The notes below the pieces were generated by a model. That model saw only the letters and a program-made list of their open reading frames with translations, made no database searches and was not told the DNA's origin. A stretch of DNA of 42,614 nucleotides, from assembly GCA_964428465.1 (NCBI GenBank), contig CAYRYG010000002.1, forward strand, positions 1-42,614, given 5' to 3'. A program made the position numbers and the translations under genes. This DNA comes from an uncultured Gammaproteobacteria bacterium (GTDB lineage: Bacteria > Patescibacteriota > Patescibacteriia > UBA9934 > GWF2-40-263). Shown here one piece after another: positions 16,554 to 19,462 of this stretch (the stretch's first letter is position 1; every line of letters begins with the position of its first letter).

Positions 16554-19462
16554 AGCGACGTGATCGTCAGGTCGTCCGGGTGCGCGTGCCAGCCCGGATG
16601 GCTGGGGAAGTCGACGACGAGGAAGTCTTCTCCCTTCTCGCCGACGACCGTTCCTTCCTCCTTTTTCTTCAGCGTCCCGAGCATGTACGCCGGCACGATG
16701 TCCGCGCGAAGCCGGACGCGGTCCCCGACCCGCGGGCGGGCGGGCGCGAGCTCGGCAAGCGGCGACATCCATTCCGGATCCTCGGGAAACGCCACCAGGG
16801 CCTCGTCCTTGAGTACCTGCAGGACCCGGCCGCGGTCGGTCGGCGTGACCTTTCCCCAGCCGTAGGTCGGCACGACTCCTTCCCGTACCGAAACCCAGGT
16901 GCCTGGAGAAAATTCCGAGACCGTCTCGAAGATCGTCAGCCGTTCGACCTGGGTCAGTCCCGTGCGGAGCGGACCTCCGGTGGGGCGCAACGACGACGGG
17001 ATCTCGGAATACCCGAAGTCCTTATCGTTGGCAGCGTCGCGCACCTGCTCGCGGGCGCACAGAAGGAACAGAACGACCTTTTCCTGGACGATCCCGAACC
17101 CGGTGACGATCCCGACCGCGCCTTCTTGGAGAGACGGAACGCTCCAGCGGGTCGGACTGTCCGCTCGGACCACGTCTCCGACGCGAACCGGCTTGCACGT
17201 GTCGGTGGTCGTATGCACGCCAGCGCGAATCTGCATCGCCGGATCGAGCAGCTTCAGCAGCTCTGGTGGCAGATCTACGCCGGTCCCGTCGGGGGAGACG
17301 AATCGGTTCGGGACCGTCCTCGGTGCCAGCTTGCGGATGGTCTCGGAACGCGTGGGAAGGCCTGACACGCGCCGCATCTCACCGTTGGAGCGCGTCAGAT
17401 CGATCGCATCGCCGTCCGGCCGGAGCCGAACCTTGACCGGACACTGGGAGCAATGGCGGCCGATGAATTCGACGACGTTCGTCCCGAACGCGGAACCCCT
17501 GAGCTTCTCGAGCACGCCCGGTTCCTTTCCGACGTATTCGACGAGCGCGCCGGTCTCGAGCTCCCGACTGTCCTCCGACGAGAGACTGAGGATCGGAAGG
17601 GTTTCCCGTTCGCGTTCCGAAAACGGCCGTGGCTTGTCATTGGCCGACACGCGGGCGAAACGGGAAAGGCCCTCCTTCCCAATGGGAAGCCGCCACCCGT
17701 CCGCGAACTCGATCGTCGCCACGCCCTGCGTCGTCGTGGTCACGGCATCGATTTCCAGGACCGTCCCGGCGCGCAGCGGACCGCAGTCCTGCGTGGCCTT
17801 CAGGCGCATGCCGCGCCGAAGCTCCAGCGCGCCAAAGGACCGTTCGGTCCAGACCGGCCGGATCCGGAACGGGATCCACTGGCCGTCGCGGATGACGGGG
17901 ACCGGCTCGTTGCCGGGAGAAAGGACGAGATCCGTGTCGAACGGATCCGCCCCCGTCGCCGCGCTGCGGACGAAACCGACGACGTTCGCCCGCACGCCGG
18001 GGCGGTACCCCGCGACCTGGTCGCAGATCACGCGTTCGGCGTGTTCGAGGTCAATCGTCGTTCCCCGGTAGCTCACGCGACGCTCGGTCCGTTCGAACGG
18101 GATCGTCTCCCAACGGAACAGAAGCGCGTTGGCCCGGAAGATGCAGATCGGCTTCTCGATGCCCTCGAAGGCAGCGAGGATCTCGCCGGCGTCCTTGGGA
18201 TCCGCCCAGACGCGGGACACTCGCAGGGTCTTCGGCACGTTCGCGAGGCCGGTCGTCCGGATGTACGTCCCGACCTTCAGCTCGTTCGCGCCGAAGCGGA
18301 ACGAATTTTCGGTGAGCACCGGTCGCAGGAGGGAAATGGCGGGAAAGGGCACGCCGTCCTCACGGGTGAGAAACACCCACCGGCCGTCGTTCTCGATCCG
18401 CGCCTCCAGGGCGCCGTCCCGAAACACGCGGAGCTCCTTGACCGCGTAGGTCGTGTCGGTGAGGAGAGCGGGCACGTCCTCCCTGTTCGTCACGACGAAC
18501 TGGGTGCCGCGGCTCCACCGCGTCCCGTTCGCGTCAGTCCAGTCGCTGACCGTGCGCCACGTGGACCCGGACGAGGCGACGGGGGTCACCGTCCGCAGCG
18601 CGACCGTGCCGTCGATGCCCTCGAGCCGAAGCGACACGATCTCGCCGGCGGCGTTCTCGTAGAACCCGAGCACGACCGCGGCGTTCCCCTTCGCCATCAC
18701 CTCGTCGCCGAGCCGTACGAGCACGGAGGCGATCATGGTGCCACGCACCGGGCTTTCGCGCACGGTCCGGTCGGCTCGCCCGGCGGGGACCGGCGCGTCG
18801 CGCGACAGCGGCGCCGCGAAGAAGCTGAACGTCGTGTCGATCCCGCCGCCCGCGCTGCCCGCGACCACCTGGTCAAGGGGCTGGTCGCACGCCGGCCACT
18901 TGGCGGACAGGACCCAGAGCGGGTCCGTCCTGGACAGGTCGCGCCACGCGGTGAGGCTTGCCACGGTCGGCACGCGCGCCAGCACCTGGTCGGAGAACCT
19001 CGGGAACGGAAGCGTCCAGAACGCCGAGACGGCGGCGGACACGCGGTCCTCCAGGGTCTCGCCGAATCCGCGGTCGCGGCCCGCGAGCAGGGAGCGCGCG
19101 TCGATCTCGGGAAACCCCAGGTCGAAGAGGTAGTCGGTGCGGCTGCGCAGCGGATGGGCCCGGAAGAACACCCGCAGCGTCTCCGGCTCGTCCGCGTTCG
19201 CGCGAACCAGGAACAGCACGTACGGGAACGCGAGCGGGACCGGCTCTCCATCCGGCGGCCAGCGCACGTCGCGCACCGCGGGAGGCTGCTCGATCACGTA
19301 CGTTTTGCGGCCCTCGCCGCCGAACACGTGCCGGCAACCGCGCGGAAGCAGGCCCGGCTGCGCGGACGGAATGACCTGCTCGAGGCGCGTTCGCGCCAGC
19401 GGCCGTTCGCCGCCGTTCCACAGCTCCACGGAGCCGTCGTCCAGGAAATGGATGCGTTCCAT
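16538..19462 (-). CDS. 974-aa protein: Cys-less E2/UBC-like N-terminal domain plus tandem small beta-barrel (SH3/MIB-HERC2-like) repeats; paralogue of 19549-22563
   Basis: Balanced composition, whereas the antisense ORF is Arg/Asp/Gly-rich. GAGGA SD 4 nt before the ATG. Has its own promoter and terminator. Colinear similarity to the 1004-aa neighbour (P.GC, Y.[IV]E.P, LAFPY..F.V, FFR..P, NEPVPVIRD, YGWG, LVAFP..PEW, VDFPSHPG[WF]HAHP). Confidence in the CDS is high. The fold calls are by eye only. Confidence 0.7.
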   Translation of the reverse strand: MERIHFLDDGSVELWNGGERPLARTRLEQVIPSAQPGLLPRGCRHVFGGEGRKTYVIEQPPAVRDVRWPPDGEPVPLAFPYVLFLVRANADEPETLRVFFRAHPLRSRTDYLFDLGFPEIDARSLLAGRDRGFGETLEDRVSAAVSAFWTLPFPRFSDQVLARVPTVASLTAWRDLSRTDPLWVLSAKWPACDQPLDQVVAGSAGGGIDTTFSFFAAPLSRDAPVPAGRADRTVRESPVRGTMIASVLVRLGDEVMAKGNAAVVLGFYENAAGEIVSLRLEGIDGTVALRTVTPVASSGSTWRTVSDWTDANGTRWSRGTQFVVTNREDVPALLTDTTYAVKELRVFRDGALEARIENDGRWVFLTREDGVPFPAISLLRPVLTENSFRFGANELKVGTYIRTTGLANVPKTLRVSRVWADPKDAGEILAAFEGIEKPICIFRANALLFRWETIPFERTERRVSYRGTTIDLEHAERVICDQVAGYRPGVRANVVGFVRSAATGADPFDTDLVLSPGNEPVPVIRDGQWIPFRIRPVWTERSFGALELRRGMRLKATQDCGPLRAGTVLEIDAVTTTTQGVATIEFADGWRLPIGKEGLSRFARVSANDKPRPFSERERETLPILSLSSEDSRELETGALVEYVGKEPGVLEKLRGSAFGTNVVEFIGRHCSQCPVKVRLRPDGDAIDLTRSNGEMRRVSGLPTRSETIRKLAPRTVPNRFVSPDGTGVDLPPELLKLLDPAMQIRAGVHTTTDTCKPVRVGDVVRADSPTRWSVPSLQEGAVGIVTGFGIVQEKVVLFLLCAREQVRDAANDKDFGYSEIPSSLRPTGGPLRTGLTQVERLTIFETVSEFSPGTWVSVREGVVPTYGWGKVTPTDRGRVLQVLKDEALVAFPEDPEWMSPLAELAPARPRVGDRVRLRADIVPAYMLGTLKKKEEGTVVGEKGEDFLVVDFPSHPGWHAHPDDLTITSLPPSS

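Follow-up and report, generated by a model that had tools for sequence, protein, structure and literature searches.

A putative seven-gene ubiquitin-like conjugation module with a predicted active/inactive pair of giant E2-like proteins in a Patescibacteria contig

Introduction

Several bacterial pathways that combine an E1, an E2 and a ubiquitin-like protein (Ubl), namely Cap2/Cap3 of the cyclic-oligonucleotide-based antiphage signalling systems (CBASS), Bil and Bub, have recently been shown to conjugate proteins. Eukaryotic E2s, in turn, act together with catalytically dead variants, as exemplified by Ubc13-Mms2/Uev1a. Here we analyze the entire contig CAYRYG010000002.1 (42.6 kb, GC 65–70%; hereafter the window), which encodes two adjacent giant proteins, G1 and G2, with related N-terminal domains (N-domains). 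A first-pass annotation made from the sequence alone had proposed that they may be an active/inactive E2-like pair produced by tandem duplication. With moderate confidence, we read the window as carrying a chromosomal seven-gene ubiquitin-like conjugation module of the candidate phyla radiation (CPR)/Patescibacteria (Uhrbacteria-like), in which G2 is probably the non-catalytic partner of G1.

Two kinds of described gene cassette are relevant to this locus. PRTRC (ParB-related, ThiF-related cassette; TIGR03734–03741) is found on proteobacterial plasmids and integrative and conjugative elements (ICEs). Class 6d is a bioinformatic prediction of an operon that encodes a Ubl, a JAB peptidase with an N-terminal domain, an E1-like protein, an E2-like protein possessing the Cys and lacking the His of the HPN motif, and an alpha-helical protein; in its E2-like proteins, a His on the C-terminal side of the Cys is absolutely conserved (Iyer et al. 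2006). The same study predicted Cys-less E2-like domains for class 6e, which were later, in Bub, shown to be active.

G2 is a tandem duplicate of G1 that lacks the predicted active site

G1 and G2 are colinear from end to end with an identity of 27% (BLASTP E = 5e-81), and the five motif pairs on which the first-pass annotation had based its claim of colinearity were all found and aligned. G2 starts 86 nt downstream of G1 and is an ancient tandem duplicate of it. Both genes are preceded by GAGG-type ribosome-binding sites and have a GC content at third codon positions (GC3) of 0.86–0.89, typical for real genes of the window. The segment 18818–19462, from which the idea of a live/dead pair arose, comprises G2 residues 1–215, i.e., its N-domain.

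The two proteins are most alike at their C-terminal ends. Specifically, the last 115 residues, which contain the motif VDFPSHPGWHAHP of SH3_15/Mind-bomb type, are 54% identical between G1 and G2. In all combinations with the pair of Uhrbacteria RIFOXYB12 (locus L001), this segment is 45–57% identical, such that paralogues are as alike as orthologues and no orthology signal is left, which suggests strong constraint or gene conversion. The duplication of the terminator and of the PPS[SA]-stop codons, also proposed earlier, is real: near-identical terminator-like hairpins close the two genes, with the TGA stop codon within the loop and the 5′ arm coding for the PPS tail. G1 and G2 may thus each be separately terminated or attenuated.

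The G1 motif LFWPCTTNINADNAKICFSD aligns with the G2 stretch LFDLGFPEIDARSLLAGRDRG, which contains no Cys. The absence of both motif Cys residues from G2, as first described, is therefore correct, but only C166 (KIC) is conserved in the family, being present in 139 of 155 sequences of a first set and in all 61 Cys-plus sequences from loci, whereas C154 (WPC) is variable and replaced by Trp in the Uhrbacteria orthologue of G1. The G2 stretch had been described as one residue shorter; between the LF and FW anchors it is three residues shorter. Outside the loop, the G2 N-domain retains the scaffold residues P40, C43, R44, E58, P61, R64, P80, R101, L112 and W149.

To place the loss of C166 among other substitutions, we compared 61 non-redundant Cys-plus N-domains with 10 Cys-minus N-domains (G1 numbering throughout). 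The scaffold positions P56, R60, E74, P77, R80, P118, Y119, F122, R139, L150, F189, W190, W218 and S222 are conserved to at least 87% in the former and to 80–100% in the latter. In contrast, N157 and C166 drop from 100% to 0%, and N195 (97%), S192 (89%) and G163 (85%) likewise drop to 0%, while D197 drops from 85% to 30%. Among the first 155 sequences, about 16 have neither N157 nor C166, with the remainder of the domain kept. In an alignment of 14 G2-type N-domains, none of the replacement-loop positions conserves a Ser, Thr or Cys. The joint loss of N157, G163, C166, S192 and N195 is a pseudoenzyme signature, and G2 is by this signature a conserved predicted pseudo-E2.

In addition to the active-site loop, the G2 proteins of the window and of Uhrbacteria have lost a helical insert (G1 residues 85–111) that is retained by every other G2-type protein (EW..L..RG...), a second deletion that is specific to this lineage.

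The Cys-plus and Cys-minus copies occur as ordered pairs in the giant clade

We scanned genomes, metagenomes and viral contigs for loci that encode the N-domain. A scan of GTDB with a four-sequence alignment returned only four loci; across all scans, the N-domain adjoins genes for a JAB peptidase, a ThiF-type E1 and a Ubl in about 60 loci, essentially every locus with enough flanking sequence. The gene order is Ubl-E2-like-JAB-E1 or E2-like-JAB-E1-Ubl, and the N-domain thus fills the E2 slot, the only vacant one, in these Ubl-JAB-E1 operons. In about 55 loci without the giant pair, a single small Cys-plus E2-like gene accompanies those for Ubl, JAB and E1.

The loci with giant genes are different. 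Complete pairs of G1 followed by G2 are present in seven loci, namely the window, L001, L008/L083 (Uhrbacteria GW2011), L067, L013, L015 and L025, and in three more (L007, L012 and L050) the upstream giant gene is cut by the contig end. Wherever the locus of a Cys-minus copy could be read, a giant Cys-plus gene immediately precedes that copy. In the loci scanned, we found no Cys-minus copy on its own, and no module that reaches past G1 without G2. The expectation of the first-pass annotation that Cys-plus and Cys-minus forms would co-occur regularly is therefore borne out without exception in the giant clade, in seven complete and three contig-cut loci. Its counter-expectation, that homologous loci would usually carry one copy and show no consistent Cys pattern, describes the copy number in most loci of the family, but not the Cys pattern of the giant clade, which is strict.

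The module's five upstream genes likewise occur in seven loci (the window, L001, L008, L013, L015, L025 and L065), and a RuvB-like AAA+ ATPase and a Zn-ribbon-like protein accompany the module in all giant-pair loci, while the flanks vary by lineage (holA; Fic and greA; an M50 peptidase and pheST). Locus L015 has the module in two divergent operons, Ubl-E1-JAB-RuvB-like versus 295-aa protein-G1-G2, showing that all seven genes belong together.

The same comparison bears on whether G2 is simply a functionless, decaying duplicate. Its predicted catalytic residues are gone, and in the window and Uhrbacteria the helical insert is gone as well, as decay would have it. However, the ten G2-type sequences are non-identical, each has an intact open reading frame (ORF) of 900–1000 aa, and their lineages are 22–57% identical to each other; furthermore, the scaffold residues are 80–100% kept, the place directly after G1 is constant, and the codon-position GC is normal. 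We regard decay as highly improbable.

Other arrangements of the N-domain were seen on predicted viral contigs and on one metagenomic contig. Relatives are present on predicted viral contigs L090–L094 (IMG/VR, 25–120 kb), where one form is an 880-aa Cys-plus E2-like protein together with a 597-aa JAB protein, an E1 and a Ubl, and one predicted viral contig has two tandem small copies, each with Asn and Cys. A stand-alone 269-aa relative of the N-domain (P0004; JGI 3300043331) lies beside TPR and HEPN genes; its neighbors have no E1 or JAB Pfam match listed, and its context may differ.

The N-domain belongs to a large family related to Prok-E2_D

Word-indexed protein searches returned only the orthologue from Candidatus Uhrbacteria (49% identity), one fragment and one 269-aa relative; the G2 query did not recover G2 itself, probably through saturation of the candidate list. 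The family was found only by an exhaustive search with a profile hidden Markov model (HMM), which yielded 1054 representative clusters (50% identity), 536 of them at E ≤ 1e-10. The N-domain family is thus large, and it is mostly unannotated. Matches of G1 and G2 to the family HMM range from 1e-46 to 1e-76. Relatives are mostly 850–1050 aa long and carry the domain N-terminally, while others measure 220–500 aa; CPR bacteria and predicted phage contigs are the sources of those identified.

Conserved positions of the family include P56, G/N58, C/T59, R60, E74, P77, R80, P118, Y119, R139, D148 and L150, followed by N157 (134/155), C166 (139/155), F189, W190, F194, N195 and D197. The spacing from Asn to Cys is eight residues in most members, as in HPN...Cys of UbcH5, and nine in G1. 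In G1, the only one of the two paralogues to which this applies, the Asn and Cys follow the last strand (130–139) and precede a helix (179–191), the HPN-type placement of canonical E2s. No His is conserved C-terminal to the Cys (positions 167–200), where the conserved residues are S192, F194, N195 and D197.

Four independent lines of evidence connect the family with E2 proteins. First, 29 of 49 N-domains from loci match Pfam Prok-E2_D (PF14460), which we take to correspond to class 6d, at E ≤ 0.01. It is the sole recurrent family, precomputed annotations of relatives agree with it, and one match, covering residues 494–603 within the N-domain (432–651) of relative P0063, exceeds the gathering score (27.3 bits versus 25). 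Second, PRTRC_B gives two relatives their sole or top NCBIfam match, a weak one, in the same region. Third, hhalign aligned the family profile with four canonical E2s (two of the sequences verified against PDB) at a score of 28.6 (P 6.6e-4), about twice that of the best of 22 reversed or column-shuffled controls (9.3–15.6), and in a register that pairs LPN157 with HPN and C166 with the catalytic Cys. Fourth, there is the vacant slot of the Ubl-JAB-E1 operons described above. The claim that the N-domain is E2-like is therefore supported at the family level, by Prok-E2_D matches, profile register and gene context, but the structural model described below is not recognized by Foldseek as a ubiquitin-conjugating (UBC) fold. 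By sequence, the N-domain appears to be a divergent relative of Prok-E2_D, short of a demonstrated UBC fold.

Predicted structures of G1 and G2

The AlphaFold2 (AF2) model of G1 residues 1–275 has a pTM of 0.84, with the pLDDT given in Table 1, and consists of nine strands (three + three + three), a long loop with N157 and C166, and then helices. One possible interpretation is that its final strands, together with the loop and the helix, correspond to a UBC core whose sheet has been enlarged. The full-length G2 model has a pLDDT of 84, with the blocks of the N-domain mostly at 85–97. The models give the G1 and G2 N-domains the same order of secondary-structure elements, and, as far as that order tells, the prospect raised at first that the two might adopt different folds did not materialize.

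Beyond the N-domain, the G2 model forms all-beta barrels (235–625), a disordered linker (628–716) and further barrels (720–974). In Foldseek searches, these barrels match Spt5 KOW arrays (2e-5), HERC2 (1e-4), the REP region of Mind bomb-1 (1.6e-3) and, weakly, UBE2O. Pfam SH3_15 matches 7 of 55 relatives (best 5e-10).

Evidence against the active/inactive E2 pair

A number of observations weigh against reading G1 and G2 as an active/inactive E2 pair. Direct scans with Pfam, NCBIfam and PADLOC yielded nothing for G1 and G2 except weak SH3_15, and their N-domains and those of the Uhrbacteria orthologues have no Prok-E2_D match even at E ≤ 10; the E2 link of G1 and G2 is therefore transitive. The G2 N-domain has no Pfam match of any sort, and hence no membership in the family of ubiquitin E2 variants (UEV) by sequence. 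The hhalign probability against canonical E2s is only 27%. The N-domain model has nine strands, versus four in UBC, and a Foldseek search of the G1 N-domain model against PDB gave no E2 among the 50 matches listed (best E 0.1, TM 0.13); since no relative was found there, we make no structural claim of a UBC fold. The full-length G2 model gave no E2 match for its N-domain, and a PDB sequence search found no relative. In a neighbor-joining (NJ) tree, all Cys-minus domains fall into one clade with a bootstrap of 8%, so a single loss of the active site is not claimed as proven. Finally, Cys-less E2-like proteins of Bub are active through a Ser (bioRxiv 10.1101/2024.11.21.623953), and G2 has a conserved Cys, C43 (equivalent to G1 C59), that is in principle a possible nucleophile.

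The structural points could mean that the N-domain is something other than an E2, in which case the Asn and Cys would serve another activity (e.g., that of a thiol peptidase or transferase) or form a structural motif, and G2 would have lost that other activity; that the motif might not be catalytic had been noted from the start. The lack of any solved E2 in the Foldseek matches, a sheet larger than that of UBC and the lack of direct Pfam matches for G1 and G2 all agree with this, as does the identity of the sole structural relatives of the G1 N-domain, four uncharacterized phage proteins (BFVD). The Prok-E2_D matches in more than half of the relatives, the match to canonical E2s in register and the occupancy of the only vacant operon slot argue against it, and we consider it unlikely.

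The Bub precedent calls for caution in equating the absence of Cys with the absence of chemistry. In particular, G2 could be catalytic through another nucleophile, either C43 or a Ser/Thr as in Bub, in which case G1 and G2 would be two active enzymes with different chemistry or targets. In addition to the Ser oxyester precedent of the 6E/Bub proteins, C43, which lies in a PxGC motif present in both paralogues, is kept in nearly all G2-type proteins. In the Cys-plus relatives, however, this position alternates between C (112), T (38), V (3) and I (1 of 155), which fits a buried strand position, and C59/C43 was dropped as a candidate for the true nucleophile. Moreover, the G2 loop offers no conserved Ser, Thr or Cys. 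Because five to six polar residues were lost together and a live copy is adjacent, inactivity of G2 is the better reading, and a second catalytic mechanism is distinctly unlikely.

With these points weighed, the proposal of an active/inactive E2-like pair arising by tandem duplication gains support from the paralogy, the joint active-site loss and the constant ordered pairing.

The seven-gene module in the window

The module comprises, in order, genes for the Zn-ribbon-like protein, the RuvB-like AAA+ ATPase, the JAB peptidase, the E1, the Ubl, G1 and G2, all on the minus strand, with holA downstream (Table 1). The JAB motif HxHx7Sx2D is present in 7/7 loci. The best NCBIfam matches are PRTRC ThiF (1e-11) for the E1 and PRTRC_A (1.5e-6) for the JAB protein, a relative's JAB protein reaching 1e-9. 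The RuvB-like AAA+ ATPase and the 299-aa Zn-ribbon-like protein share an N-terminal domain of about 50 residues.

The window Ubl ends in LEFVKPSGDKA-stop. An alignment of 47 Ubl C-termini shows a conserved end, G-x-K-G/A, sometimes with a three-residue tail. In the giant-pair clade the final residue is Ala in place of Gly, so the residue to be adenylated would be an Ala; the Uhrbacteria L001 copy has an extra AARSR tail. Cleavage after the 'SG' was considered and dropped, as the conserved G-x-K-G/A end is, in the window, the very C-terminus.

Table 1. Coordinates of the genes, domains and other features discussed (window positions)
Feature	Position	Strand	Description
G2	16538–19462	−	974-aa ORF; E2-like N-domain without active-site Cys, all-beta SH3/KOW-like barrels, disordered linker (residues 628–716), C-terminal SH3_15-like barrels
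G2 N-domain	18788–19462	−	residues 1–225; predicted member of the Prok-E2_D-related family
G2 degenerate loop	19058–19138	−	residues 109–135, TDYLFDLGFPEIDARSLLAGRDRGFGE; stands where G1 has the Asn...Cys active-site loop
G2 region equivalent to helical insert	19180–19260	 	insert lost
G2 C-terminal 115 residues	16538–16885	 	54% identical to G1
G2 terminator-like hairpin	16532–16552	−	G2 stop codon in loop; near-identical to G1 hairpin
G1	19549–22563	−	1004-aa ORF; Cys-plus E2-like N-domain; C-terminal architecture as in G2
G1 N-domain	21739–22563	−	residues 1–275; AF2 model pLDDT 94
G1 predicted active site	22066–22095	−	codons N157 (22093–22095) to C166 (22066–22068); predicted HPN-like Asn and catalytic Cys
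G1 helical insert	22231–22311	 	residues 85–111
G1 C-terminal 115 residues	19549–19896	 	54% identical to G2
G1 terminator-like hairpin	19542–19564	−	G1 stop codon in loop; near-identical to G2 hairpin
Terminator-like hairpin after Ubl gene	22656–22674	−	 
Ubl gene	22687–23121	−	144 aa; Rho_N/HeH-like N-domain, acidic linker, weak ThiS-like beta-grasp C-terminal half, end G-D-K-A
Ubl C-terminal end	22687–22701	 	end of the coding sequence
E1-like ThiF adenylyltransferase	23126–23836	−	236 aa, GTG start; Pfam ThiF 2e-17; conserved Cys in GCEE
JAB/JAMM metallopeptidase	23833–24873	−	346 aa; perfect JAMM motif HSHCDFAAFHSGGD; best NCBIfam match PRTRC_A
RuvB-like AAA+ ATPase	24863–26026	−	387 aa; 225 bits versus RuvB cut-off of 282 bits; N-terminal extension
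Zn-ribbon-like protein	26134–27033	−	299 aa; CPxH...CxxC (CPIH...CGKC); conserved module member
615-aa ORF	13628–15475	−	downstream of holA; GC3 0.98
Five tRNA genes	3125–3343, 27869–27945, 33483–33557, 34443–34519	 	Ala-CGC, Arg-CCT, Thr-CGT, His-GTG, Arg-TCT

Two features outside the module were noted. The 615-aa ORF downstream of holA has no Pfam or NCBIfam match; Uhrbacteria L001 has a conserved counterpart in synteny. A low-GC stretch at 2–4 kb holds two of the five tRNA genes, and at threshold no other Rfam family was found in the window.

Proposed mechanism

By analogy with E1-E2 chemistry, the ThiF-type E1 would adenylate the Ubl C-terminus (...G-D-K-A), and the Ubl would then be handed to Cys166 of G1, with Asn157 in the role of the HPN asparagine. 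The SH3/KOW-like array of about 750 residues behind the E2-like domain could provide an integral platform for binding substrates or for scaffolding, in the manner of an E2/E3 hybrid, while the JAB peptidase would trim or remove the Ubl. G2 would be a UEV-like cofactor, adaptor or regulator of G1, probably in a heteromeric assembly.

Alternatively, G2 may be the main Ubl substrate or a structural scaffold, with G1 modifying G2 or itself and the dead domain docking the E1 or the Ubl. Consistent with such a role, G2 retains the whole SH3/KOW-like array, including the C-terminal segment that is so similar to that of G1, the two giant genes each come with a separate terminator-like hairpin and ribosome-binding site, and the module contains no other obvious target gene. 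This alternative is compatible with a cofactor role, and nothing separates the two; the retained E2-like scaffold residues, however, argue for a conserved interaction surface over a passive target. We think it rather improbable that G2 is chiefly a substrate or scaffold.

In an extended form of the cofactor reading, G1 and G2 would be obligate partners in a heteromeric E2/pseudo-E2 machine, an equivalent of Ubc13-UEV in prokaryotes. Such a machine might build Ubl chains or transfer the Ubl onto targets held by the array, the AAA+ ATPase and the Zn-ribbon-like protein might read or process the conjugates, and the whole might be a self-sufficient, chromosomally fixed signalling or extraction pathway for Ubl in CPR bacteria and no mobile defence cassette. 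We put this forward tentatively, as a fairly unlikely proposal.

Discussion

As far as the papers that we found show, the 6d/Prok-E2_D branch is uncharacterized. In this branch, the locus points to a radiation of 1054 clusters, a seven-gene version with giant fusions, and a conserved, predicted-dead paralogue beside a live one. The co-loss pattern of N157, G163, C166, S192 and N195 further provides a candidate active-site map for the whole family. A module of about 10 kb is costly for genomes of about 1 Mb; together with its location amid genes for replication and translation, this suggests a core role in the cell. In the open-access literature on CPR Ubl systems, Prok-E2 and PRTRC, we found no description of giant E2-like/SH3-array fusions, a tandem live/dead pair, RuvB-like AAA+ and Zn-ribbon companions, or a CPR distribution.

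Comparison with known systems

We place the module, as a remote relative of larger size, with the predicted class 6d/Prok-E2_D/PRTRC-type cassettes, which combine a Ubl, a JAB peptidase, an E1 and an E2-like protein. Among these, class 6d is the nearest kind described, and by best matches it corresponds to PRTRC. The core genes agree with those of class 6d: the Ubl is a small beta-grasp protein whose C-terminal small residue is conserved, the JAB protein is extended at its N-terminus, the ThiF-type E1 is short and lacks a rhodanese domain, and the E2-like protein possesses a single conserved Cys but not the His of HPN. In contrast to class 6d, the family of the window has no conserved His after the Cys, and G1 and G2 themselves miss the Prok-E2_D model. 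Furthermore, the E2-like domain is here fused to the SH3/KOW-like array and duplicated into a predicted live/dead pair, the RuvB-like AAA+ ATPase and the Zn-ribbon-like protein are added, no alpha-helical protein was recognized, the host is a CPR bacterium, and the module lies among housekeeping genes.

The likeness to PRTRC consists in the best NCBIfam matches, i.e., PRTRC ThiF, PRTRC_A and, weakly, PRTRC_B. All remain well below the respective cut-offs (ThiF, 44.4 versus 144.75 bits; PRTRC_A, 27.9–38.2 versus 101.8 bits; PRTRC_B, 15–16 versus 131.45 bits). In addition, the module genes scanned have no ParB domain, the module is chromosomal in CPR and not on a plasmid, and a tblastn search with the E1 for plasmid PRTRC protein B returned one irrelevant match.

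Bub, Bil and type II CBASS Cap2/Cap3 resemble the module as bacterial E1/E2/Ubl/peptidase conjugation pathways. The E2 of Bub (6E/DUF6527) is Cys-less and was once called inactive, and it is the sole E2 of its system, active via a Ser oxyester (Ye et al. 2024, bioRxiv 10.1101/2024.11.21.623953). Here, in contrast, an intact Cys-plus copy adjoins the Cys-less one, no replacement nucleophile is conserved, and there is no PADLOC match.

The combination of a conjugating or ligating module with SH3-like barrels is shared with UBE2O, Mind bomb and HERC2, which are eukaryotic E2-E3 hybrids and E3s, although the likeness lies in the accessory domains only, and domain order and catalytic domain differ. 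As in Ubc13-Mms2/Uev1a, a Cys-bearing E2-like domain is accompanied by a Cys-less paralogue of the same predicted fold, and the pair is conserved over long distances. Unlike Ubc13 and its partners, G1 and G2 have no UEV sequence relation, both are multidomain proteins of about 1000 residues encoded in tandem, and their pairing is seen as constant adjacency of the genes. If G1 and G2 work together, the active-E2/pseudo-E2 principle of Ubc13-UEV would have arisen independently in bacteria.

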